A program made the position numbers and the translations under genes. Under the pieces are notes generated by a model. That model did no database searches. It saw nothing but the letters and a program-made list of their open reading frames with translations, and was not told the DNA's origin. A stretch of 64,000 nt of DNA, taken from a virus. Lineage: Duplodnaviria > Caudoviricetes. Where the stretch lies: positions 64,001 to 128,000 of the IMG/VR virus record IMGVR_UViG_3300005077_000489; one strand, 5' to 3'. Shown piece by piece: positions 7,744 to 34,900 of the stretch. How positions within the stretch are numbered: the stretch's first letter is position 1; each line of letters starts with the position of its first letter.

Positions 7744-8721
7744 ATGCTTTATGAATTAAACAATACAGATTTTTCATCTGTAGACCCAAATCTACCAATT
7801 ATTTTTTTACAAATTACCAAAACAGGCGGATTAGCCTATTCACAAGCACTGCAATTTATATATAGAGAAAGATTCTGGTGGGGAAACCCCGAAGAGTTGG
7901 CAAAGGCTGTTAATAAAGGTCCATGTACTGTTTTTGCTGGGCATTTTAATCTGGCTTACCCCTGTTATCAGAAAATAGAAAAAAGATTTAATCATGTAAC
8001 ATTACTACAACACCCTATTTCTAGGACGTTAGCAAATTATGAGAATATTCTTATAAATCCGAGACACCCTAGTCATAATATTTGTAAAGAGATGTCATTG
8101 AAAGAAATTTTTAAGCAAGACTATTTTAGGAAAACATTTGGGTATGATGACTTGATCGGTATCTTGTCTTCTATGCGTTTTATAGGTAATAGGACCTGTA
8201 ATTTAACGCAGCAATCCAAGTTTAATCTGTCTAATTTTTTTACCTTCTTTGGTATTGCCGATTATTATACTGAGTTCTTAGACATCTCCAACCGTGTCTT
8301 TGGTTGGCCTGAATACGATTATAAGTCCTTCGATACATTATCAGAGATGAATCACGAAGATTATGCTGATTCAGAGACCCTGTCTCTTATGTCTGATGCA
8401 TACAGGCATGATATAAAATTTTATAATTTTGCTGTGGACTTGTACGAGAAAAACAGATACGCCTGGTTGGGTAAGAGTGATTTATTAGCAGAAGATGCAT
8501 TAGAATTACGAGAAATAAATATTTTTGAAGAAAGGCCGTCCCGTATTGAAGTGGGTAGCCTTGCGTCTAATAAAGAGGAAGAGATACCAGAAGGAGAAAT
8601 AATAGGAGTGGTTGACGAAGCTGCGGCGACTACCCCGGTAGATAGTAGTAAAGTTTCGTTATTCAAACGAATTCTTCTGTGGTTTGGCAGGATATTTAAT
8701 AAGAAAGGAGGAGAGGTGTAA
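7744..8721 (+). CDS. Sulfotransferase-family-2-like protein, apparently degenerate
   Basis: IIFLQITKTGG (cf. FLHIPKTAG), GHF, TLLQHPISRTLANY (cf. TxLRDPxxRxxSxY), FFGIADYY, DIKFYNFA. Both PAPS-binding motifs are altered. Acidic tail and amphipathic C-terminus. Confidence 0.6.
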   Translation: MLYELNNTDFSSVDPNLPIIFLQITKTGGLAYSQALQFIYRERFWWGNPEELAKAVNKGPCTVFAGHFNLAYPCYQKIEKRFNHVTLLQHPISRTLANYENILINPRHPSHNICKEMSLKEIFKQDYFRKTFGYDDLIGILSSMRFIGNRTCNLTQQSKFNLSNFFTFFGIADYYTEFLDISNRVFGWPEYDYKSFDTLSEMNHEDYADSETLSLMSDAYRHDIKFYNFAVDLYEKNRYAWLGKSDLLAEDALELREINIFEERPSRIEVGSLASNKEEEIPEGEIIGVVDEAAATTPVDSSKVSLFKRILLWFGRIFNKKGGEV

Positions 8722-10878: not shown

Positions 10879-10902
10879 AAGAGGTTATGGAGTTCTTAGA
10901 CT

Positions 10903-13900
10903 GTGGCAGAAGAATACACCTTTAATATAAAGTTAAAAATAGATGTGGATGATTCTAAGGTATATAAACTAAAAGAATTGTCTGACAAGACTAATGATGT
11001 ACTACGTAACATAAATATGTCCCATGTGAAGGGACTTGGCTCTAGTATGTCTTTTGGGACCAGTGATAAAGACATTCAAGTTTTTAATCGTATCAAACAG
11101 GAAGTACAGAACCTAGAGGGTTATATAGATAGATTAAAGTCTGATCGAATGTTTACTCCCGCCTATATTGATGATGCCACTAAAAAGTTTTCCAAAGATT
11201 ATGATAGAAAGCAACTCAAAGAAGATTTAAAAAAAGAAATGCAGATGGAGCGGGATAGGTTATACCACTCCATTACCCATGCTACAGACAGTATGAAACG
11301 TAGTTTAGAGCAGCAGAGAAAAGAATTTATCGACTTACATAATACCTTAAAGCAAATTAAAAAACCTACCGATATATCTACATTTTCTGGTGAGCGTGTA
11401 ACTCTCAGACCAGAAAGAAGTCTGAAGGAAATGACAGCCCCTGATATTTTTACTCGTGATCTGGAATTAATGATAAATAAATTACTCTTAAAACCGAAGG
11501 CAGAATTAGGGAAAGAAATATTAAAAGTAAAAGAATACATGGATGACGTCTATTCAGAGATTAATACTGCCTTAGATAAGGTGGGTTATGAGTCACATCG
11601 TAGGGCTCAAGAAGAGGTTGGTAGGCTCCGCTTGAAAATAGAGGGACTTGCTACCGCAGGGGATATAGACCAGATAACACGTAATGTAGAATCTTCATTA
11701 AAAAGCGGGGATTTATTAAACCAAGTTAAAAAAATGCGTGAAGAGATAGTGAAAGCATCCACCGAGTTTGCTAAGGAACTGGGTGATGAGACGGATAAAA
11801 CTAGAAAGTCCTTTGCTAATTTTCAACGTAGTATTATTTTTGCCTTTAACAAACCGCAGTTCTTTGACCCCGCTGGAGAACTGTTCAGGGATGTGCAGTC
11901 ACTCAGCCAACGTAAAGGAATTGGTTCCCCTTACGGCGGTCGTTACGTTGGTGCTCCTAGGATTAAGTTTGATGAGGGCGGAATAGCCAAATATGAACTA
12001 TTTGATGTAAAGGCATTGGCAAGAGAAACTGCTAAATTAATGTCAGTAGCCGGGTTAAAGCAAGCCTTGAAGGCTGACCTAGATAGTTCCCTGCAAGATG
12101 CCTTGAACAAATATTTGGATGCTAATAAAATTTCTAAGAAAATAGAAACACTAGTTTCTTATTCTATTAAAGACCTGCAAAAGATACAACTAGATTTGCT
12201 CCGCTTTGCCGAAAAAGAAGTGGCTAGGCGAATTGGTGATGAAGAAACCAAGAGGCGTATAGAAGTATTTAATAAATATTTAGAGAGTATAACAAAACAG
12301 GCACTAGTCCTCCCTTCTATCGCTAAAAGTTCGCGTGGTGCTTCTATTATAAGAGACCCCGAACGTGGAGAATATCTGACTCTCGGTAGATATCTAGAAA
12401 CTAAACCAGGTATTAATGAATTGGATGATAGATTTATCAGACCTTTGTTAGACTATGTTAAACGTATGAATTATCGTACACAAGATATTCCGTCGCAAGT
12501 GAAAAATATTCAACGTACTGTTAAGGATTTCTGGGTAAGATCCCGCCCACAAGAAGAGCATGGTGTTGGGGTTGGTATGGAGTTAGCCGCCAGAGAAATG
12601 GTCGGTAGGATGAAGACAGCTTTTGATACGGTTGGCTCCTTCCTGGAACAGACTAGAGGACCTAAGGCTAGAAGAGCATTAACCGGAATAGATGAACTTA
12701 AGCAGCAATTCATGGTCGATTATGAGAAAGCACTGCGAGAGGCTGTGCGTGCTACTCACGAACGTGTTGCTAAAGAAGAAATAGTTACCGGGGCTAAAAG
12801 ATTACCCCCTGATTTGGAATCTCGTTTTAGGGAAGCCTTGAATTCTTTACAAGGAAAGGGTCCTAGATACCAATTATTACCAGAGCAAGTTGTTGGTTTT
12901 CTAAGGAAGGAATCTGAGAAAGTAGCACGTCAGATAGAATCTTTACCCATTGATAAATTAGAAGATGAATTAAATCGTATTGGACAGAGAGAGAAGAATG
13001 TAGTAGGTGGTACCGATTATGATGCTAGAGCATGGCAACGTGTCCTAGAGGAATTCAGTAGATACCGAAACGTAGATTTTTACAATATGTTAAATCGTGC
13101 TGCTTCTTATTCGAAAGATAGTATAAATGAATTGGAGAAGATACGTAATAGTTTATCTTCAGCCGGTCGCTTAGGAAATGAATCTTATTTTCAAGAATTA
13201 TTGCAACAACAATTTAAGAAGGTTTTTGACCCTATAAAAGAGAAGGTACCTGAAGAGCACGAAGCCATGCAGAAGCATGAGGTCTACGGTCGCCATAAGG
13301 TAATAACAATCCAGCCAAAAATACCTGGAATAGATGCCGGGCCTAGTTCCTACGGTGTTCCTGTCGATTTACAAGCTCTCAGAAGATTTATTGTTCAGAG
13401 AAATCTTGACATGGAAGAACTCTTTGAGAAGGAATATCTGAGGGGTACTGAAGCAGCCATGCGTAAATTAGGTACAACTATTGAGCGTCTTGCTACGGTT
13501 GGATTAAACGAAGCGGCAGCCGCAGGTAAACGAGATTTTGGTGATAAATTCATGGAATCTTTTTTCAGGGGTAAGAGATTACAACCTTTTGCTTCTTATG
13601 ACCCTAGGGAGACCGAGGCTTTTGGTTATTCTATAAACCCAGCTCGCCCCACCGGGGCAGCATGGGACTCCTTGGCTGGTCCAGAGTTTAATGCTATACG
13701 TTCTCGCAAAGCTCATAAATTTATCCGTAGCGGAGAGTGGGGACCGTACGGGACTGGTTTAAATGTTACTACAGTTCTTAAAGATGTTTCTGCTGGTTAT
13801 GAAGATTTATATGAGATAGGTAAAAGGTTACAGGAATTAGCTACGTTTAAATTTAAAAAACTTGTGGTTCCTAACTTGAAAGGCACAGAGGAAGAATTAA

Positions 13901-16900
13901 AAAATAGCGTTGTAAAGTATCTGCAAGAGGTTGGTCATGATATTTTTGGTGCTCCAATTAAATCTAAAGAACTAGCTGATGAAACTTATATAAAGGATAT
14001 AGTTAAGAGATGGGCACAGTCTCCTCAGGGTCCTATAGAAGAAAATATTGTTGAATTAATAAATACCTATTTGGGTCATGAAGCACGTAAGATTTCTACC
14101 GGTCAAGTTCTTAAGGGTGTAGCCTCTACAGCCTTTACTAGATTCGGTACAGAAGTAGAGGAATCGGTCAGGGAAAAAGCTAAAAAAGGATTGTATCCAA
14201 AGATAAAATTTATGGATGTGGGTGAATTATCAGATGTTCCTAAATCATTTGAAGAATTGATATCTGAGTTATTGTTGGTTCGAAAAGATTTAGACCCAGC
14301 AAAAGTTTCTAAGGCTCTAGAGATGATAAAAGGAACTCAAAATATGATTATGATGTCTTCTGACCATTTAAAACAATTAAAAATTAGTCCTATAGAATAT
14401 GGTACTGGTAGAATAATGGGGGAGGATGCTCCGAGCCTAGAGGAGCGTCGTAATTTTGTTGGTAACTTACTTGGTATAAATTTGACCTCAAAAGAAGCTC
14501 TAAGGAGTGCAGGAGATATTACTGCTCAAGTTAAAATGTTAGAGCAAGATATGGAGAGAATAAGAAGGCTATATAAAGAATCTACTGGTGGAGATTTAAA
14601 TAAAGAGGTTCCAGTAGACCTACGGATACTAGCCTCCGGGATAGGGAAGAAGTCACGTATGATCGGGGGTAACTTAGCAGAGATTATCGCAAATAATATT
14701 ATAGGAAACCTACGTTCCAGACCTTTAGAAGGTGAGACGTTAATGGAACAGATACAAAGGTCTCCCCTTGCTAAGGTTCTTGTGGAGAACACCGCCTCTG
14801 GTCGCGAAGTTATGAAATTGGCAGAACTATATAAGGGGGCTTTAGGATTACGTGGGAAGTATGGCGAAGAGTTTATATATAAACAAAATGATGCATTAGA
14901 AAAAGCGGTTGCAGGAATGATGCATGTTATGATTATGAAAGAACCTAAAGGGTGGGTACCTAAAGGTGCGGCCGAATTAGAAGCTGGTTTGTCAAAGATG
15001 ACAATAGATCCGCATGGATGGTTTGGTCTTAAGAAATTGTTTGATCCACAAGGTGCGTTGACACGTGAATTTACCATGCGGGCTTTTCCTGAAGCACGGG
15101 AAGCTGGTGCTTTCTTATCGGCATTTCGTTCATTTGCTAAATTACGTGAAGAAGAGATGACCAGAGCAGTGAAGACGGGAAAAGTTAGAATGGTCGGTGA
15201 AAAGCAATTAGTTGATGAAGACAGAGAAGATTATATTGCTCCTCTTAAAAGAAAGGCGACGGTAGCCGATCTGTCTAGAACTATTTTTGATCCATTTAAA
15301 TACGGACCTTCTATGGCTTTGGAGTTACCGGAGCCATCCGAGGATATGAAACGTTTGATAGAGGAAGAGATTAAAGAAGGAATAAAAAAAGGTATACAAG
15401 TAATGCCGGTCAAACGTTTGGTTGAAATTCCAGAGATTAGTGCACGACAGTATGTGACTTCAGAGACCGGTGAAGTATTACCCTCTACGGTATCCAGGTA
15501 TCTCTCAGAACTGGTGGATGCCACAAGAAAGTATCATATATTAGGTAGCCGAACTAATGATATAAATAAATTAGATATGCAGCGAGAGTTCGTTGGGACC
15601 GCTATTGGAGACTTCTATAATAGGATACATCCTATCAGGGACTTGAGCGTAAAACTTGATTTGCTCAGTAAACTGGAAGAGCAGGTTTTTTCCTTAGTGG
15701 GAAGTAAACCTATGCCACAGTTTTCCGGGAAATCTTCTGTCATCGCTGACGCACAGGACCCGACTAAAGTATGGTTTCCTACTATGTACAGCCGCCTCGA
15801 CGACGAAACAAAGAAATCTTTAGAAGAGGATATGCGTAAAGGTATTTCTATAAAAGATGCTTATAATAAATATTTTAAGGAGTTGGAACAATCAGTTTCT
15901 AATATAAATTTCAGGGCTCGTTTTCTTCGCGACCTTATAACGGGACCTGTAATTTATACTAAAGGAAAAGAGGATATTGGGCGTGAAGTAAAAACAGATA
16001 TATCAGAGGGTAATGATCCCCGCTATCAAAATATTAACCTAGTCCAAGATAAGATGTTATCAGATATTATCACTAACTTCAAACAGTACGAAGCTGAAAC
16101 AGATGCCTACGGGAAAACTATCGGAATAAAGTCTCGTTCTTTATTGGACTTACAGTATAATGAAATAAGACGTAATCTAAAAGAATATTATGATGAATTA
16201 TCTAATATGATATTCGGTAGAGGTATCCTGTCTGATGTAGTTTTGAAGAAGAAGATACCTGCTCTCTACCTGACAGCTCAACAACGACCTTATGACCCTA
16301 GCGAAGCAATAAAATCTGCTATAGACAAGTTAAACAAATTCAAAACAGAGGTTCCCAATGCTGAAGAATTGAAGACGGACTTAGATAAGGCTCTTCGAGA
16401 TGTAGAAACTTTCAAAGTAACAAAACCATCCCAGTGGGTCCGTCCCGGAGAAGTTCGTATAGGCGAGAGAGACCTAAAGGAATTACAAAAAGCGGGAATG
16501 GCTACTCCTGAGTTACAAAAGAGTGTGGATAGTGTTTATGCCTTGATAAATAGGCAGCCTACTACAGATGAATTTAGTTACAAGGCGATGCGGCTTACAG
16601 TGGATGATGCTCTAAAAGACCTGTCTGGAATAGCAGTAGTTCCCGGGTTACCAATAGGCGACTATCCAGTTAGTTCTAAGATGGAAGAGGCTTACAAAGC
16701 GTTAGAGGATTTACGTAGCAAAAAAGTTAAGGCTATAGAAGAAGAACTTTCTAAGTCTAAAGGTAAAATGACTTCTACTGTCACTAAGTTGCAGAGGGAT
16801 ATAGATGAGATAGACCGAGCGTCCAAGGACTTGCGGCCTATGTACCATGAAGCCTCTTTGGGTTTAGATTATGACGGAGATATGATTTCTATTCATGCTG

Positions 16901-19900
16901 CTACTGTAAAAGAAGCAAATGAGGAATTGAAGAGAATTCATGATATGCAGATGAAAGAGTATGGAACCACTAGAAGATTTTTGCATGAACAACTTAGTTA
17001 TGTTCCAGAATCAAAACGTTCTATGGGTGCCAAAGGTACTGAATTATCCGATGAAGAAATTATGGCTGTAGAAAAAATGCGAAGAAGTGCCTCTCCTACA
17101 TGGCAAGAGATGGACATTGTGAGTGACATTTCTAAGCAAGCTAAGAAGAATTTGTTAGATATCCATGCTACTACTCTTCCCGAGATAGCAGAAGATTCAT
17201 TAAAGCACTTTGTACACAAGGTTGATATGGGACAAGGTTATGAGGCTTTTAACCGTATAGGTTTCTTGTATCGTGGTGCCACGGCTAAGGATTTGGGTAT
17301 TACCCCTAAATTACATGAAACTTATAATTTATTATTAGGAGAGTTTTTGCGTGATACAATCCAAAAAGTCATAGGTGGAAAACACGGTTCGGCTGGTTCG
17401 GATATGAGTCCTATAGTGCAACAAGCTTTTTTCACTGGAAATATAGACGCGGTAGTAGATGCCCTGGACAAAGGGGATGGCGGTTGGGGAAGTTTTAAAG
17501 GTCAATCTGGTAGTAATCAACCACTATTTCAAGAGATAGAAGATAATTTAAGAGAATATCGTTTAAGATATCTGAAGCCAATGTCTAGAGATCAAGTAAA
17601 GAAGGAAGCCGAGTCCTATGGTATTTCCACATTTATGAAAGGTAGGGAACAACTAATAGAAGAGATAGTAGGTAAAACCTCTTTCAGAGCGATGTTTGAG
17701 AATGTATTTGACCAAGTAAGACGTATGGCAGTGGCTAATATAAAAGAATTATATCGTACAGGATTGGCAGGAGATTCTTCCTTATCTAAAAAGGGCTCCA
17801 TGGGCCTCGCCAAATTATTGGCTGGTACTGAGGGGTTCGAAGGAGAGACACTACAGACCTTAGGATTAAGAACTAAATTTAAATTTAATGAAGGAGACTT
17901 TGAGGCATTTGTAGACAAACAAGATGTTACTGATAAGATAATGGGAGTGTTGAAGGATAAATTAGGTAATGTCTCCAAACAGGAGATGGCTTTTCAAATA
18001 GCCGCAGCTGGAGAAGGGATTGCCAAGGTTCTACGTGGAGAACCCGGGAAACTAAAGACAGAGATAATAGAGCCAGGGTTTAGTACCGCTGGATTATATC
18101 GCGGTTTACAACCCATGTATAAACTGAAATCTTCCGGCGGGGCGGAGATGGCTGTTAGTTCTTATTCTAAACGCTCCGAAGGAGAAAATCAGTATACCCC
18201 CGGTGGTCCTGCCCTTTCTTATGCAGAAGTATTAGATTATGTATTGCGTAATAAGGCAGGAAAAAATATAGAAGTAGGTCCTTCTTTAGGTACCTTCACT
18301 AACCCGAGAGAGCAAAAAGCCTATGAATTTGTAAGTCCTGCTATTCAAGCCTACGAGGATTTTGAAAAAGCATATAATAAGATTATGTTGGTAATGGACA
18401 AGAACCTGTATGCCTTGGAGGGATTGCTCGCACAAGTACAGACTTTTGGTAAGGAAACCGCGGGTTTTAAAGGTGAATCTGCCAGAGCTGGTCGTTACGT
18501 AATGTATGATAAGGATACGCAACAAGTCTTCCTGGATTCTGCTGTAAAGTCTGCTTTTGAGGATAATAAGCGTGCTCTTTCTTTGGCTAGAAATGCTGGT
18601 GAGGCTAAAGAGGCGGAAGATAAACTTTTTGATACTGTTAGAAGAGTAAATGAATTATTAAAAAGGGGTGCAGCTTTAAAGTTTATAGATATTGATGAAA
18701 GCAGGAGAGCAGACAACCTCAGAAGTACCATAGATAAACTAGCTGACCCTTCTTCTAGATGGTCATTAAAAGTAGATAGTCTACTAGAGAGAATGGTCTA
18801 TGATAAGAAAGAATTCGGGACATTAATACGTAAGTGGTTAGCAGATGTCGGTCGGGGTGATTTATTAGATAGGAGTAATGTGGAGATAACAGCCGAGTTA
18901 AGGAAGCACAAGGGTATAAGGAAGGAAGCTCTAGAAGAAGCAGCATCTTATATAATTTCTGGTAAGGGTAATATAGCAATTGGTTTGAGACCCTTGATTA
19001 GAGATGCACGTTCCGTGGATATAAAGGAAGAGATATCCAAGGGTCTTATAGGGAAGATAAGATCGGAGGACTTCTCAAAATCTTTCTCACCCTTATTTAT
19101 GGAAAGTTGGAAAGAAGCTGTCATGCGTAATGCACAAACATTAAGTGCTTCGGACTGGAGAAGTATTTATAAGGCTCATCCAGTGTTACGAGATATGCAG
19201 GCTCCTGGTACTTCGTCATATGAAGACGTTATTAAACAGTTACGTTCCGAGGGTATTTATGGTGGTAGTCGTGGGGTCACCCATTTTATAAATAATATAT
19301 TGAAAGAAAGACAAGGACAAATTTTAGAGCACCTTGGCGTGGAGAAACCTGAAGATTGGGAAACCCTTAGACTAAGCCAAGTGGAAAATAAAATGAAATC
19401 CGGTATATTAGAGGCGGCGGAATCTACAAGGTGGCCATTCAGACCCCGTGCCGGTGGAGGGGTATATTTAGAGGATATATTGGACAAACCGGTTCACAAA
19501 GTTAGAGAAGATGTGGAAAACATATTTGATAGTGCTTTTGACCTATCCCCGGAAGACTGGAAACAAATATTTAACTTTGATGAAAAGGCACAAAAAATAG
19601 CGATGAATGCTGAAGAGCCCCTGAAGGCTTTATATGAAGCCGGTATGTACGGTGAAAATCGTGGATACACAAGATACATTAATATGATATTTAAGAAACG
19701 TATGGAGCATATTCTAAATGAATTAGGGCAGGAAGCCCCTGATTTCTATACCATGCGTTTCCAAAAATCTAAACAAGAGTTTCTTAGTTCTCTCGAAGAA
19801 GCAGCATTGGATAATTTATTAAAAGGAACTCCGTCAACCGGAGGACCTTTTGGTGGTAAGCGGTTTACTCCCGGAGAGGCTTTTGGGGAGCGGGCACCAG

Positions 19901-22900
19901 AGAACATAAGGAGAGCATCTAGAGGTTTCGTTCCTGCTGATTACCCTCATATTAAACCTATTTATGATTTTCCTAAATTCTTAGATACAGAATCTTCGGT
20001 ACAATACAAAAGTCATGGTGACCAAGTAAAAATGAGTGCTGTACCTCTAAGGTGGGGTAATATAGAAATAGGTTATGGTACTAAAAACAAACCATTAGAT
20101 CCAGCTACAGCTAATGCTAGATATAGGCCTTTTATAGAAGCTACCCAGGACCTAGTCCCAGTAATGAAAGATTGGGTAAAAGAGAACAAGCATCGCATAG
20201 ATTTATATGGTGAGTTTGGCGGGTTAAAAGATAAATTAGTATGGTTTGATGCTAAGGTAGCAAACAAAACTTTGAGTCCTGATGATTTTAAAAAGTTAGC
20301 TGAAGAGTTAAATCTGAAAACTACTGAAGAATTATATAGAGGACCAGTAACGAAAGAGATAGTTGACAAAGTATATCGTCAAGTCACTCCCTTCAGAAAA
20401 TTAGAAGAAGGCGTTGTGGCTAAAGGATTGGAGATTGATGAAAGAACAGGCTTCCCTAGAATGGCTAAGTTTAAGACTAAGCCTTATCTAGTGGGGGAAG
20501 AGACGCGTTATCCTTGGCAAGACTGGGGTAGTGCAGAAAGGAAAATAGAGGAGAGGCATAAGAAACTTATGGAGAGAGCATTTTCTCCATTTGATAACAT
20601 TGAAGAAGGGATAGAACAGGACCCTACAAGATCTTTTACACCCACGGAAGCCCAGCGTAGAGAAGGCTTATATCCAGAAAATTGGCCGGTTGTAGAAACT
20701 ACCAAAAAACGTGTTGAAGAGTATCTTAAAGGTTTAGATGATAAATTTTATCAGTCTGCCGAGAGAGCGAAAGAATTTCCTAAAGGTACTAAGTTCTTAG
20801 TACAAGCCCCGGGTGTAGAGCCCATTCCTTCCTATGCTAAGGATGCTGTGGTTATTTCTAAAGAAGAATTAAGGAAAACCATCTTTGGTAAAGGGATGCC
20901 AGACTTACCTTATGACCCTGTTCTTGTATTAAATTCTAGAAGACAGGTTCCTAGGTACCCTGAAGCAATTCCTATTTCTAAGGAACGCGGTTTTATGTTT
21001 CCTGGCGAGGCTAAAGAGGGTGATGTAGGTAGGTTTGTCATACACCAGCATGATGCCTTAAGGGCGGGTCCCCACCATGACATGCGTATTGAGTTAGGTG
21101 GTCAATTACAGTCTTGGGCAGTTCCAGAATTTATTCCGGAAAAGATGGGTGAACGTAGGTTAGCCATAGGTCCTACGGCACACCATGCCATTGACTACTA
21201 TCAGAAGGGAGATTACGATATTCCCAAAGGTTTTTATGGTGCCGGTCATATGTCAACATTTGATACGGGTAAAGCTACTGTAGAAAGTGTAAAAGAAGGT
21301 TATGTTACTGTACGATTAGAGGGAGTAAAAGGACTAGCTGATGGTACTTATTCTATCATAAAATATGAACCTAAAGGAGAAGATACAAGAAAAGGACAGT
21401 GGTTAGTGTCTAAGGTTAGACCATTGTCAGAAAGAGACCCAGAAAGAGCAAAGAAATTATACGGTTTTAGTCCATCCATAGAGTTAGATGACGAATTGGG
21501 GGCAGGAGAGGGTAGGTATGGACAGGGTAATATAAGGTTATTTACCCCTGGTAATAGAGCAGAGATGCGGGCTTTTATGAATGTATTACAACATGAAAAA
21601 GGACACGCAGCAATAGATTTTGCAGCACCTAATATTGCTAGGGATATAATGGCTGGAAAACAATTTCCTGGTGTTGATACCAAGAAACTGCAAAGTTATT
21701 ATATGCAGAAGTATGGGGACCGCGGAGATGATGAGGAGGCAGCAGCGAATGCATTAGAAGAGGCTATTGCAGGCGGGCTACGTACAGACGAAGACCAAGA
21801 AATATTAGACGAAATTAGCAAACTGCAAGATGTCATAGGTGAAAAAGCCGGAATGGCATTTGCAGGTACATCACCACAGAACGAACTTTCCTATATTAGA
21901 AAACTATTCTCACCAGTACAACAACCGTACACAGTTTATACAGATGCAGGCTCTAGAGGTAACCCCGGTCCTGGGGGTGCTGGTGCCGTAGTATTTGACC
22001 CACAAGGTAAGAAGGTTTCAGAACTTAGTAGATACTTAGGAGAAACCACAAGTATGGCTGCAGAATATCAAGGGCTTATTATGGGATTAGAAGAAGCCCT
22101 TAAACATTCTGCCAAAAACATTCAACTTAAGTCTGATTCACAAGTAATGGTGGGGCAGATGAGAGAGGAGTTTAGAGTTAAGAATGAACAAATAAAAGAA
22201 TTAAAAAGACAAGCAGACTTACTTAAAGCACAATTCGAAGGTTTTAATATAGACTATATTCCCAGAGAACAAAATAAATTAGCAGATAAATTGGCTAACA
22301 GGGCTATGGACTCATATCTTAAGTCATATTCGCCTGCCGAAGATGACGTAGACCGTTTTGGTAGTCCTATTATTTATGATTATAATAAATTGACAAGTAG
22401 CCCTAATTGGCTTCCCCGCGGTATGACTGCTAAGGCTGTTTCCGCTGCTGTAAATGGACAATTTATAGGTGCGGCATCTTATTCAACTGCCTCTCCTGAA
22501 TACACAGGGTTTGGGGAATTATCTATAAAACCGGAATATAGGCGTAGTAGTAGAGTTGCTGGTAATTTGATGGAGAAGGTAATAATAGATTTAATCAATA
22601 GTGGTAACTTCAAACATACACGTCCTCTCACCCCAGTCGCTGATACTCCAGAAGCCATCTCTTTTTGGGAGAGTATAATAAAAAGAACACAGAAGCCTTC
22701 AAGAAATATAAAAGAGGCATTCTTAGCAAATAATGTGACTCCTGATGATCTTTCCATGGTTGCTGGTAGATTACAGGCTGAAATAGACATAACCAAGGCA
22801 TCTAAGTTTACTGATGTAATAAAGAGGATCATTGAAGAACCTCATAATTTAGGGGAAGAACTTTCTAAACTGACAGAGACTAATCAAGCAAAAGTAATTA

Positions 22901-25900
22901 GAGCTACCCAGGCAGTGTTGGCTAAAACAAATGATGCCTCTTATCCAAAGATAGGTATTAAACCTACTGCTTTTTCTGAGGGATTGGATTTTAAGTCTAA
23001 ACTCCGCTCTGAAATAACATCATTATATAATTACGGTAAAGAAGGTGCCAAACTATTTTTTGGGTCTTCTGGTTCTGGTTCTTCCATAACTGAATTTACA
23101 AAGAATATAGCAAGGGGTATATGGGATGACCTAGGTAGATTGGGAAAATTCTCATTAGGTACAATGCGCGGTTTGAGGGCGTATGCACCTGTAGAAGATT
23201 TAGTTCGTAGTGGTGAGATAAAGATTGATGACACCCCATTTAGAGCCCGGGGGCTAACGTCCGAGAGAGTCAGAAACTATTTAGGTAGAGGATATGCTGT
23301 TGGTATGGGTGGGGGCGGTAATATATATATGCCTCCTGATATTATACAATCATATCAGAATGCCACTGGCGGACTTAAACAACAGTATGGTCAATCTATA
23401 ATGAAAACTTATTTTCATGAAAAAAGGCATCTTGATATCGATGCTGCTCCAGAGAAAATAAAGGAAAAGTGGAGACAACTTGCATCTGACAAGAATACTG
23501 ATATAGGTAAATTAGTTAGTAGCTTTATAAATGAGGCTATGCTTAGCACTTCCAGGGACGTATATAAGAAACAATTTGAGGATGCTCAAAAGAAATATGG
23601 AGAAAATATAGGTTCCGATTTCTTAAATTCTTTTGCTGCTAGGTGGGAAGCCTTACAAGAGATAATTGCTGGTCATCCGGAGATGCGTTCTGCTAGTAGT
23701 AATCAACAGTTAGTACAAAAAATTCGCAGTGATTTCTATGGAGATGTAAATAAGCCTATACCTGGATTTGGTCCCAGTGCTAGTGCCTTTTCTCCTAATT
23801 TAACAGATTATAAAAATTTCAAGAACATTAAAAAGGGCTACGAAGAAGAGTCGGATACTGGACTATTACATAAGAAAAAGGTAGCTTTAAAATTTGGGAT
23901 TCCGCCATTAAAAGGTCTGTTGGGAGAAGATATCGATATTTCGGAATCTCTACAATATTTAATGCATCCGGCTATGAGGGAAAGAAGACTTATGGGACTC
24001 CCCCAAAGAATGATAGATTCAAGAAATCCTTACTTAGCTGGGATGTTACGTAAAGGTTTTGGTGCTGGTGCTGGCTTATCCCTAGAAGGAGAACTAGGAG
24101 TAGGTCCTTACAAAGTAGAATTAGGTGGTGTAGGCTTTGGCAGATATGGTAAGAAAGATGAGGAATTTTTTGCTGATAAACCCAGTGAGATAATAGGACT
24201 TTCTAGTTTGGAACCCGTCAAACGTCCAATTGATTACGTGGGTTTGAGCCCCGGTGCCGAACACGGTTTGTTGGCCGCCCTTAGGGCAAATACTAACGCT
24301 CTACTACGTTCATCTTTTATTACGAAGGATATGCCCGTTGGGTTACTTCCTACTATTATGCAGGACATAACTAAAGCGTACAGGGTTCCTGCTACTGATG
24401 AGACCCTAGGCAGTGCTTTTAGAAAATTTTTTGGCGGCACTTACGACCTTGCAAAGGGTACTATGAAAGGTGCTATAGGTCTTCCTTATACATTAATAAA
24501 ATCTCCTTTGGATATATTTAAATCCGGTAAGGATACAGATTCCAGGTTTTGGACTGGTGTTGGTCAACAATTCAATGGTATTTCTGCGGGATTATCAGAA
24601 CTTTCTACATACAAGAGTGGTGCTTTCTTGGATACAGATTTAAAAAGTGCCTATTCAACCAAATCAAAATCTATTTATGATATAAAGAATATTGTAGATA
24701 TGGAGTACGATAAATTAGTAAGAAAGTTAGAATTTGGTTTGGCAGTGATGGAACCCGCAGATTTAAAGCGTAATATATCTGATGTATTTACGGCTTATTC
24801 GGACACGATGGATAATATGTTTAAAAACCCGTCTAAAGCCTTAGCCGAGGAGGCTGCTAAACAAAAAGCAATACTGGAATCAGTATTGGGAAACCAATGG
24901 GAGACTCCCCCAGCGACACAGCGATTAATACGTGGTGGTGCAACGCTGGGTCATGGGGTGTCTTCTATTTATAATCGATTACTGAAAACTTTGGAAGAAA
25001 TAGGTTATGCTACGGGTGGTGTCGGAAAGGGAGTAGGCTATTTAGCAACACACCCTAAAGACATATTACCCGGAATTATGTCTTCTATCCGAGGACTATT
25101 ACCAGGGAAGGATATTACTGGTGTCGGGTTGTTGGGTGAAACTTCCAGACAATTAGAGCAAATCTATGGTACCGGGATGTTAAGAACTTCTGATGTAGTA
25201 AAGTTAGCCGGGTACGGTGTATCACCAGAACAAAAAGTTGGGGGGTTACTCTCGCGTGCTTCAAAATATCAACCTGTGACAGCCGCGGACCGTGCTATGA
25301 GAGAAGTTCTTGGTCTCAGGGAAACCGGTGCAATTGTGGGAGATATCACTAATACAAAAGGAATCTTGGGTGCTCTAGGGCATGTTGTGGTCAAACCCAT
25401 ATCTGCTATTGGTGAAACTATGACAGATATGGGTAAGGCGTTTGGTTCCTTTAATTTAGTAGAGATGGTAAAAGCTCCTCTAATCGGTCTCTTAAAGCTA
25501 GCCCCAGTGATCGGTCATACCGTTGCGGGTGTTCAAGAATTTAGGGAAGAAGTAGAGAAGGGTGCTTCCCCTTACACATCATTTGTTAGCGAAGTCGGAG
25601 AACAAATCATAGAGGGAATTACTATTGCATTAGGTGCCGCCGCAGGTACTAGAGTTGGTCGTCCTGCAGCCGCCGGGTTAGCTAGTATAGGTGGTAGGGG
25701 TCCTATGGCAGCCGCTAAATATTTACCAATTGCCACTGGTATAATAGGTAGTATTCTAGGAGGAATTGGTGGTGGTAGAATAGGGGAGTCTTTTGAAAAA
25801 GGTATGTTCTCTATGGTGGGACAGACCTCTCCTAAGTCTGTAGCACGTTCTATTTGGGAGCAAGAACGTGATAAGCGATCTCTAGAGGAAGAGGGTCTAG

Positions 25901-28900
25901 ATAAAATACTACCGGATTACCTGGATGAATCCAAAAAAGAAGAATTAGCCAATATGCAAAAATGGTTGGTCCGTGGTGGCGTAGTTGGCGGACTATATGG
26001 TGGTATGAAGGTTCCTCTTCAAGGTGGAACACTTTCACGTTTAGTCTCTATGGTCGCGGGTCCTACTCTAGGTTATCTCGGTGCCAAAAAATTAGGAGAT
26101 GTCACGATGGGTCGTGCTTCAGAGAAGGCTAGAGAAGACTATATGGAAAAGACTCTTGGATTTCGATCTTTTTCTCCATTATCTTCACAAGAGAAATGGG
26201 ATATTCCTAGGGAAATACGCGGGGTTACGTCTGAGAAACTCAAAGGAAAAACCTTAGATGAAATAATTTCTACTTTCAAAGAGTTACAATCTGAAACGTT
26301 TAGTGGTAGCAACTTAGATAAGCAGAAACTGTTGACATCACAGAAGGCTGTTACCCAGTTTATGTCCGAGATCTATCTTAGCAGAATTGAAGAGTTGAGA
26401 GATCAACTGAATGTCGCTGCTAAAAGTGGTAATCAGAATTTAATGGCAAAACTCCGAGCAGAGATTGATAGGTATATAGTTTTTTATATAGGGAATGTAC
26501 TCAAGTCTTCTACTGGTGCACACGCAGCCGCCGATGCTTTTAGGGTGCGGTCTATCGGTGGTTTTGTAGGTTCAGAGGACTATGAAGCACGTTCTACAGG
26601 TCGTCCCCAATCTTTCGATGAGGTTATAAGTCTCGATAAATTCTTGGAGAGGGGTCTTAGCGGTGTATCTAGGAAGGCTGTAAATCTATTAAGGAATTTA
26701 TCTGATACGGGTGCTTCTCCAAGGTCTATATATCAAGAAATAATGCCAGGAATTCTGAAGTCTTCTACGAATATCCCAAGAGACGTTACGGCTGTGCATA
26801 CATATTTGAAATCTGTAGTTCATGAACTAGGACAAACCCCAGATGTTAATATAGACCAGTACCGTTATTGGAAGTCATTGGAAGAATATTTCCGGGCCAC
26901 CGCAAAGCAATACAGAGGAAGTAGTCGGTTCGACTTTGGAGATCTACGTTCTGCTGCTCCGATAACACCAGTTGGTTTACGACCGGAGGACCAGGAGACC
27001 TTTAATGCAAAAACTGTAGATTACTATAAAAAAATGTTGCAGGCCAACCCAATGTTTAAGGAGGGTGCTACTGTACCACTAGAACTTAAAGTTACGGATG
27101 AGGCTGGTAATGCTTTAAAAAATATAAGAGTTGACTTAACAAAAACAAAACACGCGGCGGACGGCGTTTCCATGTCCATAACAGATATGAATAAAGTTAT
27201 GGCACAGAAAAACACTCTGTTTGGTGCAGTAGAACTAACTTCTAGATTTATTTTGGCGGGAGCAACTGTGGGTGGGTTAGTTAATGAACTAAGGACTATG
27301 GCTTCCACTATTGCTCAAGTAGAGTCTGGTATGATGGAACTAAGAAAGGTTATGGAACCCTCTATAACCAACTTTGACGAGATACGTAACTCTGCTCTTA
27401 ATATGGCTAAAGAAATGGGTGTTGGTATTAATGATGTCATACAATCTATGGTAGTTTTCGGGCAACAGGGTGATACACAAGCACAAGTAATAGAGAAAGC
27501 GAGAACATCTGTTATGGCTGCCGCTATAACTGATATGAAAGCTGCAGAAGTCACTGAATATCTTACATCTGCGGTAAAGCAATATGGAGAAGAGATAAAG
27601 GAAACACAACGTTTTCTGGATTCTTGGATAAAGGTTGACGTACAGCATGCCATAACGGCTACTGAATTATCCAAAGCAATGCTGCGTGTTGGTTCCGCTG
27701 CTAAAGAAGCTGGAGTCGGTTTCCATGAATTAAATGGTATTGTGACTGGTATTGGCTCTGTTACTAGACAAACCGGTAGAGAAGTTGGTACTGCTCTACG
27801 TTTTATTTTTAGGAATCTCCAAACTACTCAAGTTAAAAACTATTTGCGTAATATACTAAATATTGATACGTTGTTACCGAGCGGTTCTATAAAACCGGCT
27901 ATGAAGATATTTGATGAATTACAGGCAAAATGGCAGAATTTCTCTGATGCTCAAAGGATGCATGTTGCACAATTGGTTTCCGGTGCTAGACATTATAATG
28001 CTTTTCTAGCAATGATGAATAACTACTCAGAAGTATTAACTGCTACACAAGATTCTATACACTCTGAAGGTTATGCTCAAGCTCGTTTGAATATGCAAAT
28101 GGATACGCTAACTAAGAAACTAGCACAAGTCAGAGCGGCTTCAGAAAGATTATATGTTGACTTTGGTAAACTAGCCCTGGGTCCAATGAAACTCGTAGCG
28201 GATGCCACAACTTCTATGATTACTGCTTTTACTCTAATCCCTGATACTGTAAAACAAGCTATATTAGCATTAGGTACTTTTGCCGCTTTTTCCGGTAAAA
28301 TAGAAAGTGTTATTTCCGGTTTGCAAAATTTTGGGGTGGCTAGCGGTATGTCAGATACCTTTTCTAATTTTATGTCTTTTGCTACCTCCCCAATTTCTTC
28401 AGTAATGAAAGCGTTCTCTTCTGTTCAGGGGGTCTCTGGGTTATCAGAGGTAACAACTACATTAGGAAAGATGGCATTCATTGGTATCTCTGCTGGTAGA
28501 TCTTTTAATAGTTTGTTCAGCAGTATAGGCAAAGGCGCAGGAATTGCCCTTGGTTCTGTGTCACTACTCGCTGCTGCAGTTGGAGCTCTGAGTGATTCAC
28601 ACACAGGAATGTTTAAATTGGCTGGTGCTTTCGGGCTTATAGGAGCTTCTGCTCTTATTAGCAGCGGTATTATAGGGTCCCTAAGCGGCTCCACTACAGG
28701 TTTTATTGGTTCCTTAGCACCTCTGGCTGTAATTGCTACTGTTATCTATAAAAACTGGGATAAGTTATCAGACGTTTTTGGCGGAGTAGGAAATAGTATA
28801 GAACGTTTACAGAAACAGACTGAAGGTATAGGGAGTATCACTAGCAAGCGTTTAGAAATTAGTGAAATAACTACAATATTTGGTAAGGCGAACTTATTAG

Positions 28901-31900
28901 GGAGAGGTCTCAGGGAAGCCAGAGTATCATTATCATCTTCCCAAGGCTTAGCAGAGGAACGCGACAGAGTCTTAGGAAGTATGGGCGAAGAGAGTTCTTA
29001 TAAGTCTTTAGTGTCCAGACAGATAGAATTCAATGATTTACAGAGCAAGGCTCTTAATAAAAGTATAGAATTATTACCCCAATTAGCCGATGGTTATGAT
29101 GCCTTTGGTAATGCCATAATGAATACAAATATAAATGCCAGAATCCTCCTGGAGACTATGGATGACCAATTGCGTGTAGCACAAGACATGGAAAAAGTTG
29201 ACTTAGCTAAGTTAATGACAGAAAAATTATTTCCTGTCGATTCGGTAGGGAAAACAATAAGAGATAGTTTACGTTCTATTTTGAGTATAATTCCTAGTGC
29301 GGGAGAACAATGGGCGGAAGCATTATTCCCTTCCTCTGCCTTTGAGAAACAGCAGCGTTTACTAACAAAGATGGGTGGGCAGAGAGAAATGGCTTCTCTA
29401 TATGGTAATATACCGATGCCACCCTTTATGTCTAATTCTCTAAAACAAATGCATCGGGAATTAACAAAAGTAAATTCCGAATTAGATGTGGAACTTAAGA
29501 AAATAGGAGATAGATTACTTTCCGTAAGCAGGGAGACTTCCCCCAAACAATTCCTAGATATGTTGGCACAACCGGAGTTCGATAAATATTTAGAAGTGTC
29601 TGGTGGTAGAAATATGCATATTCAAAGGCAATTAGCTGATGAATTCTTTGGTGGAAATGTAGGAGAATTGCAACGTGCATTACTACCTACTACCAGTGAG
29701 CCAAGAGCACTATGGAGACGCCGCGAGTTTGGTATCACTGGTGGCGGTATAGCGGATGCTTTGGGATTACCTAGTTCTTATAGAGTTAAATCTCCAGTAA
29801 GAGACCCGTTTGGTAGTGCTTACAGGGAGCTATCCAGTCCTACAAGATATATGTTAGAACAGTTCAATCCACAAATAGTTTCTATTGGTCAGTGGTTAAA
29901 TGATGGATATAATGCTTTAGGGCAAACTGTTACGGAGTCTTTTATAGGGGCACTAAAAACAGCCTTCAAAGCCCTTGATGTTACTGAACGAATCTCTAGA
30001 GAAGTCGGGGTAACATTATCAATGATAGGAGAACAAGGTGGATTACGACAAACATTTGTTTTGATTGGTAAAGATATTCAAGCGATAGCACTTACTATAA
30101 AAGAGTCCTTTCTCAGAAGTATTGATGATTTGGGGGCAATGGTTTCTCGCGGTGCCAGAGCAATAGCAGGGGACGAAATAGCTAATGCATTTAATAAGTG
30201 GGTAGAAGAAGCAACCAAGAATACAAAAATTGCCATAGACTCATGGATAATATGGTCTAAATCTGCAGGACAAGCAATACAACGCTCTTCTTTTGGGAGA
30301 GAATATAGTAATATCACCGCAGGTGGTAATCTGGGAGACATATATTCCAGGGCTAGTACTAAGGGTATGTTGGGAGATGTATATGCTGGTTTTGGAAATG
30401 TACGAACTGCTATTAGTGACCAGTGGTGGACCGGGAAAACATTTCCTATACAGGGTTATAGACCACCAGAATATAATTGGTGGCGTAGTGGGTATGAAAG
30501 GCGTATAGGTATAAATAAACCTGAACAAGTTTTTAGTGTAGATGTAGCATCTCTATTTACCAAGGGTTTAGGTTCTGACTTCTTGTCTACTATTCTTACC
30601 TCAATAAGCCCGTCACTTAATTTGCTTATTCGATCTAGGTATCAAGCAACTCCGCAAGAAACATATGCTAGGGAGCAAGCGGAGATGGCACGCGGAGAAG
30701 CACCGGGTTACTACACTCCTCCTAGAGAGATGTACCTTAGAAGAGACTTGAATGCTCTTGGAGTAACCGCTGTCTTAGATGAAATAAGTGTTGCATTAAC
30801 ATCCTTCTCTACTATGTGGAGAGACTACGGCGATATAATGCGGCAAGAGTACGGTTTTATACCTGAAGGACTAAAGACATTAAAGAATATGTGGCTACTT
30901 GGTGTCAAAGAGACTGGTTATAGTGCATATGAGACAACTACACAAGAGGTTCTTCCTAATATGATGAAGATATATCCTCCACTTCATCTTACATATAATT
31001 TGATGAAGCCAATGAAAGAATTCGTAGAGTATTTGACCTTTATTCCTGCAGCTATAAAAACTGTGGCTGGTGAAGTAGTAAAAGCTGGTGGAGTATATAT
31101 GCAGGGTAGAAAAGAAGTCGGAATAGAACTAGAACCAATATTTTCTATCTTAGAGAAATATCTTGGAGGAGTTGCTGCCCCCGCTGGGTTCCTCTCTGTA
31201 GACATAATGCGACTCTTGTCCAGGATATTTGTTGATTATCCGAAGGATGAGATTACTAAAAGAATAGTGGAGAAGGAAATTGCACCAGGGGAATTTGGAC
31301 CTAGGAAATCTTTCGGTCAGCTAAGTTTCAGAGAATTATTTACATATTTAGTTACAGGAGTTCGACCCTCTGCTCCTGGTACTGTTCCTACTGTAGTAAC
31401 TCCTGGTGTACGTGCTCCTACACCTGCCGAAAGGGCGGAAGAGACGGCAAGGAGACAAGCAATAACAGATGAGAATTGGAGAAGGCGAAGAGACCGCGGT
31501 GAAAGAATAGTTGACGATTGGATGGAAAGTTGGAGAAATGCTACTGTGAGTACCAGTAGGGCACTTGCTTCTTGGTCTGATATAGTTATGGCTTTCTCCA
31601 ATGATGTAGGAATTTCTATAAAAGATGTGTCTGGTATGGCGAGAGAATACATATCGCAAGTTCAGGGTAATCAAACTAAATATACCAAACAAGTACGTTC
31701 TTTTGTAGAGCAAGCATATGACAATTTATTGAATACTTCTATTAAAGCATATCAGAACGTACAAACGGCACCTATTAGAGAAATGTATGATAAAATAGTA
31801 GGACAAATTTCTGACAGGATTTCTACCGCTACAGAAGGTATAGACACTACTGCTCTGAGAGAGGGTATAAGTAAGTATATGAATAAGGCGGTAGAAGGGG

Positions 31901-34900
31901 GTAGAACGGGTACCACGGAGCTCTCCAAAATATTACAAGAACAGGGTATAGATGTTTCTAAGTTATCTGCTGATAGATTACAACCTATAGTTGATCTTAT
32001 TGATAAATACAGATCCGATGTAGAAACCGCTGTCTCTCGTGGTCGGGGCTTTGGTAGCAGAACAGCAGCGGAGACCTACGCGAGAGTTTCTGGTATAGAT
32101 ATTTCTTCATTAGATAAGAAGGCTAGGCAAGGTGTTACGCAGGGTATAACTGCTGTTGAAGATTTATTCACTAATATAAAACAAGAGTCTACAATCCTTG
32201 CAGAGTCTACTGGTAGAACACTTTATGAAGCTAGAGATGAGATATCCAAAAAAATTACAGAGACTATAAATAATTTTGATATAACCAAAGCCTTGGATGA
32301 TAAGACCTTGGCAGAAATGTCAAATGACTTAAGAGATAGACTTAAATCTTTAATACCAAAAGACTCTGAGAATGCTGCAAAACTAGAAGAGAATATTAAT
32401 AGTTTAGTTTCTAAGTTCACAAGTTACTTCCAAAAATTCCAACGACCCATATTAGAGATTTCTAAAGATATTCCTACTGATAAACTTAAGAAGAGTATCG
32501 TTGACCTATATGGAGCTATTGCCGGAAAAATAAATAGTCCAGCCATCAATGAACAAATTGAACTGGCTAAGCAAGTGTTTGAAAAGAATATGGGTCATTT
32601 AAGAGGAAAATTAGGAGAAGTTAAGTTTGCTGAATACCGGGATAAGTTTGCAGAAATGATGGTTACACGATATCAAATGTGGTCCGAGAGTATCAGAACT
32701 AAAATGGATGCATATATGAATTCGGCAAAAGACATGTTTACCAACATAGATGCTGCTTTGGGGGACACGTTTGGTAGGTCTTGGGATTATGTAAAAGGGA
32801 TAAATATCGGACCAAAATTGCAGGCTGTATTAACTGGCTTAGTAGGTAGTGCTGCGGAATTATTTGAAGGTGCACAATCTAGTTTTGCACTACCTCTTAG
32901 AGAAATAGAAAAACGGGTAAAACAATTAGACTGGAAGAGTACCTCGGATGTTATGCACGATGTTTGGTTTACACTACAAAAATCTTTAGTGTGGCTGCGT
33001 TCCGAAGCAGAAAGATATTCAGGAGAGGCTGAAAACTATAACAAAAAAGAACAGCAAGATCAGTTAAAACTAAGATTAAAACAGAGGGCAGCTTGGGAAC
33101 AAACATTAGCATTCCAGGGATTATCGAGAGAAGAGATACAAGGACCACCCGGTACAATAGCATTAAAACGACCAGAATCTTTACTAGCCGCTCCAAGTTT
33201 TGAAAGAGAAGGCATGTACAATATGGCTACAAAATATGGTCCCCTAGGGAGTTATGCCGACATCATTCAATCTTATAATGACATAGCTCGGGGTGCCTTA
33301 GCAGAAGGAAAGCCCTTTGGTACTAATTTGGGAACTGTCGTCCTAAGACCTGGATATGCACAACAGATGGGTATAGTTGGTGGCGGTACTAAATTAGGTG
33401 GAGTGGAGGTAGGACCTAAACTTCCTGTTACTTTAGGATACACTGCTGAAACAGGTGTTACCCCTATGGTTACTACACAACCTTTAGGTGGTATAGGTGG
33501 TCGTATTACACCACTGACTGAGTTACCAGAAGGTTCTATACAACTTGCTATGGGTGGCACCAGAATGATTAATTTTCGAGATACTTACGAAAAAGCAATC
33601 AGGTCTATAGCATACGGGGCTGGTATGAATGTATCTACCTACGCTGCACAAGAGAAGTTGAAGTTAGGTGCAGATTTTGAATGGGAAGTAAGGGGCTACG
33701 ATAAAGCTGTTAATTCTATGTGGAATATCTCCACTGCTCTGTTTAATATGAATAAGCAAATGGAAGAATTCAGAAAACAGGCTACTTCTGCTGGTGCTCA
33801 GACAGAGAGTGCTATGCAAAAGATAGAGGACATGAAACTAGACCAAAGGATGTTAGGTGCATTAATTAGACTAAAGGAAATGTTGGAAGAGTTCAATAAT
33901 GCCAAAGAAAAAATGACCTTTGATTTCGGTCTTGGAGAAGTAGAAGAAAACATCCGTGTGTTACAGAGGTCCCGTAGAGTAGGACTAGAAGGTATGGTAG
34001 GGTTGCCCACTAAAATGCCTACGGAATTAAGGTCTTGGTCTCAGTTGAAACCAGAGGAGCGAGCGGCTGTAGTCAGTCCGCAGTATGCCGCTTCTACACG
34101 CCGCTTAGCCGAAGCAGAGAGAAGACAAGGACTAGGTGAGAGGACGGAATTGCTCGCGGCTAAAGCAGATTATAGGGCTCGTGCATATGTGGATGAACTT
34201 AAGAAGCAGGTCAACTTAGAAAGAGAACTTGGTCCGGAAGCCTATCAAGCTTTATCAAGAGATATACTAACAGCAGATAATGAGACAGCCAGAAATACGT
34301 CGGTTAGTATAGGGCTACAAAAAGGTATGGTATCTGCACTAATCGGTATCAAAGACGCTATCACGGCAAACTTCTCCACAATGAAAGTAGAGGAAGTCTA
34401 TAAGGAAGCCATAAATTATAAGAAAACAGCGGAACAATTGGAACAGCAAGCATTAGCAATGGGTGTTCCCGAGAACTTGTCTCCGGAGATGCAAGAAAAA
34501 CAAAGGGGCTTAAATGAAAGAGCCCGCGTCTATAGGACTTTGTTTGAGGAAGGCAAAATAGAAATTTATGAGAGAACTAGAAGACCGGAAAAATCCCTTA
34601 TTACTCCTGAGTCCTTTCATAGGGTTGTATTAGGATTTCTGGCTAGTACAAAAGAGCAAGAAAGGACTATTAGGGCTAGCCTTAATGTTGGTAATAATAG
34701 AGCCGAGCAGGCACTATTTGATATTGCTACCAGACTACCACGTGAACGACGAAATGCATTCCTACAAAACAGGTATATAACAAAGAACATAGAGGCTGCT
34801 GGCAGCAATTATGTAGGTGTAGATTTTGCAGCGAATGTAGCCAAACGTCTTAAGAAATTTGATGACGAATGGTCTGAATTACAAGCCAGAAAGAAAGAGG

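Follow-up and report, generated by a model that had tools for sequence, protein, structure and literature searches.

Candidate single-chain two-barrel RNA polymerase in the giant tape measure protein of a large tailed phage

A giant tape measure gene with an RNA polymerase-like module

The DNA analysed here is a stretch of 64,000 nucleotides (the window) that spans bases 64001-128000 of the linear IMG/VR virus record IMGVR_UViG_3300005077_000489 (Duplodnaviria; Caudoviricetes), which is 211,229 bp long and is estimated to be 86% complete. A single open reading frame (ORF) of 13,616 amino acids (aa) occupies 10903..51753 of the window. It encodes a tape measure protein (TMP), and its N-terminal part carries a module (aa ~740-2400, 13120..18102) that is very probably a homologue of the two-barrel RNA polymerases (RNAPs). 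The ORF begins with a GTG codon that is preceded by GGAG 9-10 nucleotides upstream and by an in-frame TAG at 10897. All residue numbers are counted from this GTG at position 10903, and all window features described below lie on the plus strand.

The TMP assignment is based on a core domain, on gene position, and on hydrophobic segments. The core (aa 5496-5690, 27388..27972) matches Pfam PF10145 PhageMin_Tail (E 2.9e-25) and 13 PHROG TMP families, the best of which is PHROG 4211 (E 4e-60). Because the genes for the large terminase (TerL), the portal, and the major head protein are found upstream, the ORF belongs to the structural gene block and is downstream of the head genes. It is followed by large ORFs of 786, 355, 246, and 318 aa, plus one of 4,741 aa. 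Transmembrane-like segments fall in aa 4852-10176. At standard thresholds, no Pfam or PHROG family matches aa 1-3000.

The boundaries of the module, in which a beta-like half precedes a beta'-like half, were drawn from a conservation profile against a 545-kb relative and from motif, fold, and Pfam evidence. An initial annotation had proposed a two-barrel RNAP inside the TMP at 13756-17400. Its location within the giant ORF was correct, but the module extends further in both directions. The residues on which that proposal was founded (E967-D968, K1063, K1071, S1251-R1252-M1253, N1883-R-Q-P1886, D1989-Y-D-G-D1993, and IQKVIGGKHG at 2153) are all present in one frame where they had been placed. 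The TMP setting and the beta'-like half of the proposal are upheld by the evidence described below, whereas the beta-like barrel is visible as motifs only.

Catalytic motifs of the beta'-like half

The DYDGD sequence (D1989-Y-D-G-D1993) is the sole DxDxD in the 13,616 aa, and it corresponds to the DxDGD magnesium-binding loop of the superfamily (Rpb1 D479/D481/D483). Upstream of this aspartate triad, N-R1884-Q-P1886 supplies the R-x-P feature of these enzymes (Rpb1 R446 and P448). The top Pfam family for aa 1840-2060 is PF00623 RNA_pol_Rpb1_2 (E 0.0022, 18.7 bits), which aligns as two stretches in profile order. The first is the NRQP segment with R1884 and P1886 (aa 1877-1901, 16531..16605, profile 98-122), and the second is the DYDGD loop with D1989, D1991, and D1993 (aa 1988-2012, 16864..16938, profile 139-163). 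When the 211-kb and 545-kb genomes were searched in full in six frames, the NRQP and DYDGD places were the only PF00623 candidates, and the larger genome shows both stretches as well. Furthermore, the alignment of E. coli beta' 446-480 with aa 1984-2008 scores 50, a value that none of 300 shuffled sequences reached (maximum 44).

The distance from the arginine of NRQP to DYDGD is 105 aa, versus 35 aa in beta' (R425 to D460). A charged, K/E-rich insertion of ~65-85 aa (16645..16842) lies in between, flanked by both PF00623 stretches. The AlphaFold2 (AF2) prediction renders this insertion helical, at low confidence only, and its composition suggests coiled-coil character; the segment, which would split the beta' barrel, is probably helical. 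Two further blocks lie downstream. IQKVIGGKHG (aa 2153-2162, 17359..17388) is conserved. GEGI.KV...IIEPG.ST (aa 2370-2393, 18010..18081) loosely resembles the base of the beta' trigger loop (GEAIGVIAAQSIGEPGTQ), a likeness that comes from a chained alignment that is not significant overall and that serves as a lead only.

A clamp-like domain and a candidate switch 2

A clamp-like domain is predicted at aa 1412-1772 (15136..16218). The AF2 model in which it appears covered aa 900-2099 with a mean predicted local distance difference test (pLDDT) score of 53.7, and the clamp region alone was usable, with pLDDT values mostly of 74-92 over aa 1530-1769 and lower, patchy values over aa 1412-1529. 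In VIA-align, the counterpart of this region in RNAP largest subunits is residues ~12-420 (120-143 residues aligned, Z 5.7-7.8). When the model was compared with 48,161 structures, ten PDB representatives among the best 50 matches aligned to aa 1412-1772 with a usable root mean square deviation, and all ten are RNAP largest subunits (Z 5.9-7.8, 12-17% identity). These include eukaryotic and plastid enzymes (Drosophila Rpb1, human and S. pombe Pol I, yeast Pol III, and the plastid-encoded polymerase PEP). The others are the archaeal clamp construct 3QQC, Sulfolobus A', M. tuberculosis beta', the African swine fever virus (ASFV) enzyme, and the non-virion RNAP (nvRNAP) of phage AR9. In a second-look list, Caulobacter and E. 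coli beta' 24-335 also match the clamp region. No motif was used in obtaining any of these matches.

The structural alignments stop at beta' 332-335, exactly where a GRG..S....KKK.P block begins (aa 1772-1786, 16216..16260). This block, which is invariant in relatives, is much like E. coli beta' switch 2 (GRFRQNLLGKRVD), which follows the clamp in beta', and it is a candidate switch 2 equivalent to beta' G336-R337...K345-R346. An N-terminal clamp and then switch 2 ahead of barrel A is the arrangement of the beta'/Rpb1 lineage, and it recurs here in the predicted structure. Taken together, DYDGD with its beta'-like flanks, the R-x-P feature, the PF00623 matches in two genomes, and the clamp fold make the beta'-like half of the module well supported.

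An ordered motif set in the beta-like half

Within the first 5,400 aa of the TMP, conservation peaks at aa 751-1050 (13153..14052), with 78-94% identity to the 545-kb relative. This stretch contains GYED (aa 965-968, 13795..13806), a candidate for the acidic pair of barrel B (E. coli beta E813/D814) that is invariant in relatives. K1063-x7-K1071-G-V (14089..14121) offers candidate barrel-B lysines. The initial annotation had equated these with beta K1065/K1073, and the residues are indeed present and conserved, but the pair K985/K993 is an alternative. The assignment is ambiguous because K-x7-KG is common by chance: it occurs four times in aa 740-1882 (at 985, 1063, 1346, and 1638) and in 50% of shuffled sequences. 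Candidates for the barrel-B residues of the superfamily (Rpb2 D837, K979, and K987) are thus D968 with either K1063/K1071 or K985/K993, all of them conserved, and the corresponding Pfam model PF00562 is silent.

The third element is PVD..SRM..G..L.E with R1252 (aa 1237-1260, 14611..14682), which reads PVD-LRILASGIGKK-SRM-IGGNLAE and resembles beta 1093-1114 (PVD..PSRM..GQ.LE). This segment is the best match in the whole protein to E. coli beta 1088-1115, but the score is within the range of shuffled sequences. Some spacings are similar to those of E. coli: 284 aa versus 292 from the aspartate to SRM, and 632 aa versus 661 from SRM to R-x-P across the beta/beta' junction. The three patterns GY..ED, K.{7}KG, and SRM occurred in this order within aa 740-1882 in 92 of 200,000 shuffles, although the motif definitions were made post hoc. 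The AF2 model of aa 740-1420 has a mean pLDDT of 38.9, too low to be of use. From this conserved, ordered set of motifs alone, a beta-like half is plausible but unproven.

Weak and empty searches, and the possibility of chance

Much of the standard evidence for RNAP homology is absent or weak, and this must be weighed against the reading developed above. Searches of PDB sequences with phmmer (aa 780-2400) and with family profiles A4 and A5 gave no RNAP match. PF00562, PF04997, PF04998, and PF04560 yielded no candidate, and the PF00623 score of 18.7 bits is below the curated cut-off of 25.3. Comparison by hhalign with E. coli beta and beta', and with 75-sequence gammaproteobacterial beta/beta' alignments, recovered the DFDGD segment only (E 0.017-0.05), and the gammaproteobacterial alignments were too shallow to provide a fair test. 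Both barrel regions have pLDDT values <50 in two AF2 models, and with the first AF2 model a Foldseek search of the PDB and an ESM Atlas shape search returned only meaningless rows. An ESM Atlas feature search gave no usable match either. The clamp Z values of 6-8 lie within the range that the tool calls common. Because these values are middling, the case for the clamp depends on the exclusive enrichment for one protein family and on a position just N-terminal to the R-x-P/DxDGD barrel, as in beta'. Finally, an enzyme with a clamp seems hard to thread through a tail tube.

These results raise the question of whether short motifs have simply accumulated in a very long protein that has no polymerase homology. 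A sequence of 13,616 aa offers many opportunities for such matches. When 11 motif segments from E. coli were aligned by Smith-Waterman, the supposed partner was the best match for NADFDGD and PSRM only, and a chained alignment to E. coli beta plus beta' reached a Z of only 1.5-1.7, which is not significant. The whole protein holds two copies each of NR.P, SRM, and GY..ED, of which one each falls in the module, in beta-to-beta' order. The catalytic signature is harder to obtain in this way: given its amino acid composition, the whole protein should contain D[FY]DGD ~0.01 times, and the expectation for an NR.P in the 150 aa upstream is ~0.014. Moreover, the PF00623 matches recur in a second genome, and the adjoining clamp fold was found independently of the motifs. 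A chance origin is therefore very improbable.

A rare family with conserved candidate residues

The polymerase-module family is very rare. Its members come from three metagenome assemblies. A phmmer search with aa 1200-2399 against 1.84 billion representatives returned only eight fragments (51-68% identity), a word-indexed search with aa 740-1420 returned one fragment, and a tblastn search of 50,697 GenBank phages gave no match at E 10. IMG/VR yielded one relative, a 545-kb contig (G001) rated 100% complete by CheckV, and the JGI metagenomes yielded one relative on an 82-kb contig. A search of sequencing runs identified one weak holder (share 0.07), and no RNA sequencing run holds the stretch from this uncultivated phage.

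The counterpart in the 545-kb genome (G001:C1:288397-332530, loci L097-L099, minus strand) is a protein of 14,711 aa that shares the N-terminus and has DFDGD at aa 1997 as its sole DxDxD. All of the residues listed in the initial annotation are invariant across three aligned relatives that share 68-71% identity, and a fourth sequence (L003), read by eye, keeps them as well. Neither the 211-kb nor the 545-kb genome shows another two-barrel gene or a canonical beta/beta' gene. There is no other credible DxDGD ORF in the 211-kb record and no further PF00623 or PF00562 candidate in the complete 545-kb relative, although a very divergent one could be missed in either genome.

This pattern of conservation also bears on whether the module might have decayed into an inactive, RNAP-like remnant whose sole role now is that of a tape measure or ejection scaffold. 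Extreme divergence, the silence of curated RNAP profiles, and the large insertions that adjoin the catalytic loop would all be expected of such a remnant. However, each of the eight superfamily-invariant positions has a candidate residue, all eight are invariant in relatives, and conservation within the first 5,400 aa is highest inside the module. In addition, phage RNAPs that are proven to be active, such as gp96 and gp66 (see below), are equally divergent. Loss of activity thus appears improbable.

Comparison with known polymerases

The one known tape measure-fused RNAP, and the only one studied, is gp96 of the Thermus phage P23-45. This protein is a 5,002-aa TMP whose N-terminal part is an active RNAP, with DFDGD at 779-783 and a minimal RNAP fragment of 327-1124 (PMC10770324). 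Virions contain it, and its transcription of pre-early genes starts from a conserved promoter (PMC10770324). The enzyme is flat and clampless, and P23-45 also encodes gp64, a paralogue that acts as a non-virion RNAP (Chaban et al. 2024, PMC10770324); the authors linked the flat, clampless shape to passage through the tail (PMC10770324). A literature search found no description of a tape measure of the present size or of a second TMP-RNAP lineage.

The likeness to gp96 is one of architecture. The module would be, like gp96, a single-chain RNAP with two barrels that occupies the N-terminal part of a giant TMP. In both proteins, DxDGD lies between several hundred and two thousand residues into the chain, and membrane segments and metallopeptidase motifs follow further along. 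As in gp96, the module here shares an open frame with the tape measure core, in this case the one matched by PF10145 and PHROG; two HExxH motifs occur at aa 3564 and 4172. In contrast, BLASTP gives only a 13-residue match at DxDGD (E 1.4), with no sequence similarity beyond it. The present protein has a predicted multisubunit-like clamp, its module is about twice as long (~1,600 aa versus ~800 aa), and the whole protein measures 13,616 aa rather than 5,002 aa. It also carries ligase, phosphoesterase, and RNase H cargo, and no gp64-like second RNAP was found in the 211-kb record or the 545-kb relative.

Other single-chain enzymes, namely gp66 of phi14:2 (a crAss-like phage), QDE-1, and YonO, resemble the module as proposed here in that a beta-like barrel precedes a beta'-like one. 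The initial annotation had taken gp66 and YonO for comparison and had not mentioned gp96, the direct precedent. The fold matches indicate multisubunit-type largest subunits instead. There is no sequence match to any of the three enzymes, and none is among the best 50 fold matches, for which the model lacked usable barrels. Like a tape measure-borne enzyme as proposed here, gp66 is packaged in the virion and delivered to the host, but it is a separate gene outside any TMP.

Multisubunit beta/beta' enzymes and their phage derivatives (AR9 and phiKZ) share with the module the beta-to-beta' order of motifs, similar spacings, the beta'-type N-terminal clamp fold, the switch-2-like block, R-x-P, and DxDGD. 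They differ in that the present protein is one chain for which curated Pfam models are silent or below threshold, in that no alpha or omega partners are known for it, and in that it has large insertions after K-x7-KG and before DxDGD. It also has no zinc ribbon, since cysteine is nearly absent from the giant protein (0.1%). A natural precedent for joining the cores of the second-largest and largest subunits in one chain is Orf6 of yeast killer plasmids, an Rpb2::Rpb1 fusion (PMC2919709). This likeness is one of description: Orf6 is the enzyme of a cytoplasmic plasmid in a eukaryote, can readily be aligned with Rpb2/Rpb1, and is neither a virion nor a tail protein. On motifs and predicted clamp fold, the present module, viewed as a beta::beta' fusion, appears to lie nearer the multisubunit clade than that of gp66, QDE-1, YonO, and gp96. 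The segment aa ~740-2400 of the tape measure is likely to form a single-chain two-barrel RNAP built like a beta::beta' fusion, both barrels of which are putative.

Nucleic acid-processing cargo in the same chain

Three further domains at 19999-22305 share one polypeptide with the polymerase module and the tape measure. They are an RNA ligase domain (aa 3033-3176, 19999..20430; PF09414, E 2e-06), a LigD-type 3'-phosphoesterase (aa 3381-3485, 21043..21357; PF13298, E 9.3e-16), and an RNase H (aa 3675-3801, 21925..22305; PF13456, E 1.4e-23, with PF00075 and PHROG 531). Between the polymerase and the ligase lies an apparent tandem-duplicated module (aa ~2730-2965, ~19090-19800), whose two alike segments, read in translation, each end in ...G.YG..RG.T.[FY]IN.I.K.R...IL..LG.

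The presence of RNase H, RNA ligase, and LigD phosphoesterase domains in the chain makes it reasonable to ask whether the enzyme is a two-barrel polymerase with a task other than early transcription. It might synthesise primers or copy RNA templates, as QDE-1 does, and act with its neighbours in replication start or RNA repair; two-barrel enzymes do include RNA-dependent members such as QDE-1 (PMC2919709). Several observations run counter to this. The fold matches are to DNA-dependent multisubunit enzymes, clamp included, and the switch-2-like basic block resembles a feature that has been tied to double-stranded DNA templates (PMC2919709). The only studied TMP-fused enzyme is a promoter-specific transcriptase, and a conserved, promoter-like 25-mer precedes genes in both phages (see below). 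A role in priming or RNA copying is accordingly unlikely, and an early transcriptase is the function that we consider further.

A candidate promoter motif

The 25-nucleotide motif GTAGAGATNNATTTGTGTACTATAT has about nine copies in the 211-kb genome (G000), at genome positions 3925(-), 13631(-), 20945(-), 21064(+), 23748(+), 178810(+), 178956(+), 184750(+), and 202982(+), none of them inside the window. The majority are found between called ORFs, all are oriented with the neighbouring genes, and near 21 kb a divergent region has copies on both sides. In the 545-kb relative, the motif matches nine times, versus 0 for a reversed control. These properties make GTAGAGATNNATTTGTGTACTATAT a candidate phage-specific promoter. 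As read from the motif itself, its conserved upstream block is ~11 nucleotides from a TACTAT element, which would be a misfit to standard sigma-70 spacing.

The nearest sigma-like element seen is in a 349-aa protein (genome 50942-51991, plus strand; L101:942-1991) that has an HNH nuclease N-terminus and a helix-turn-helix region, the latter of which weakly matches PHROG sigma-factor families (E about 7e-08).

Other genes near the tape measure

A gene for a hybrid sensor kinase of 953 aa (175-3036), with a receiver, three PAS, GAF, HisKA, and HATPase_c domains, sits in the structural block, after the major head gene and before the tail genes, an unusual finding in a phage. A 325-aa ORF (7744-8721) immediately upstream of the tail genes has a weak Sulfotransfer_2 match (E 0.0018) that is below the cut-off. 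At the other end of the window, the 4,741-aa ORF begins (60195-63998) and continues to genome position 138420, and further downstream are ORFs of 3,141, 2,187, and 1,892 aa.

Proposed mechanism and implications

The proposed enzyme would be ordered along the chain as a beta-like barrel region (GYED, K-x7-KG, and PVD..SRM), a beta'-type clamp, switch 2, and a beta' barrel that bears R-x-P and the DYDGD magnesium loop and is split by the charged insertion. Because polymerase and tape measure are in one polypeptide, the polymerase should become a component of the tail together with the tape measure and should leave the virion before or together with the DNA at infection. In the host, the enzyme would transcribe the first phage genes without the host RNAP, and the RNA ligase, 3'-phosphoesterase, and RNase H of the same chain might act on nucleic acid ends. 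An active, virion-delivered early transcriptase is a likely outcome on the present analysis, from which catalytic activity, virion presence, ejection, and early-gene specificity are all predictions. Delivery in the virion, independence from the host RNAP, and the insensitivity to rifampicin that the initial annotation had suggested would follow by analogy with gp96.

The evolutionary interpretation is more tentative. The module could represent an independent second origin of the TMP-RNAP fusion, from the multisubunit beta/beta' lineage and with the clamp kept, in a ~1.5-MDa protein of 13,616-14,711 aa that also injects ligase, phosphoesterase, and RNase H and that holds the only two-barrel polymerase candidate of these 200-545-kb phages. 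We regard this as a real possibility, but one that falls a little short of an even chance. If it is true, a clamp-bearing enzyme of 1,600 aa would have to pass through the tail in unfolded form and fold again in the host.

Curated profiles miss this family entirely, and for this reason similar enzymes have probably been overlooked in viral metagenomes. A second, unrelated TMP-RNAP in jumbo and mega-phages would mean that fusing a transcriptase to the tail core is a recurrent solution rather than a curiosity. Set beside the clampless gp96, it would also offer a clamp-bearing, single-chain enzyme of the beta::beta' type, with GTAGAGATNNATTTGTGTACTATAT as a ready candidate promoter, and it would make it more pressing to explain how a large folded enzyme exits through the tail tube. 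Such phages would be able to deliver transcription and nucleic acid end-repair activities to their hosts in one polypeptide.

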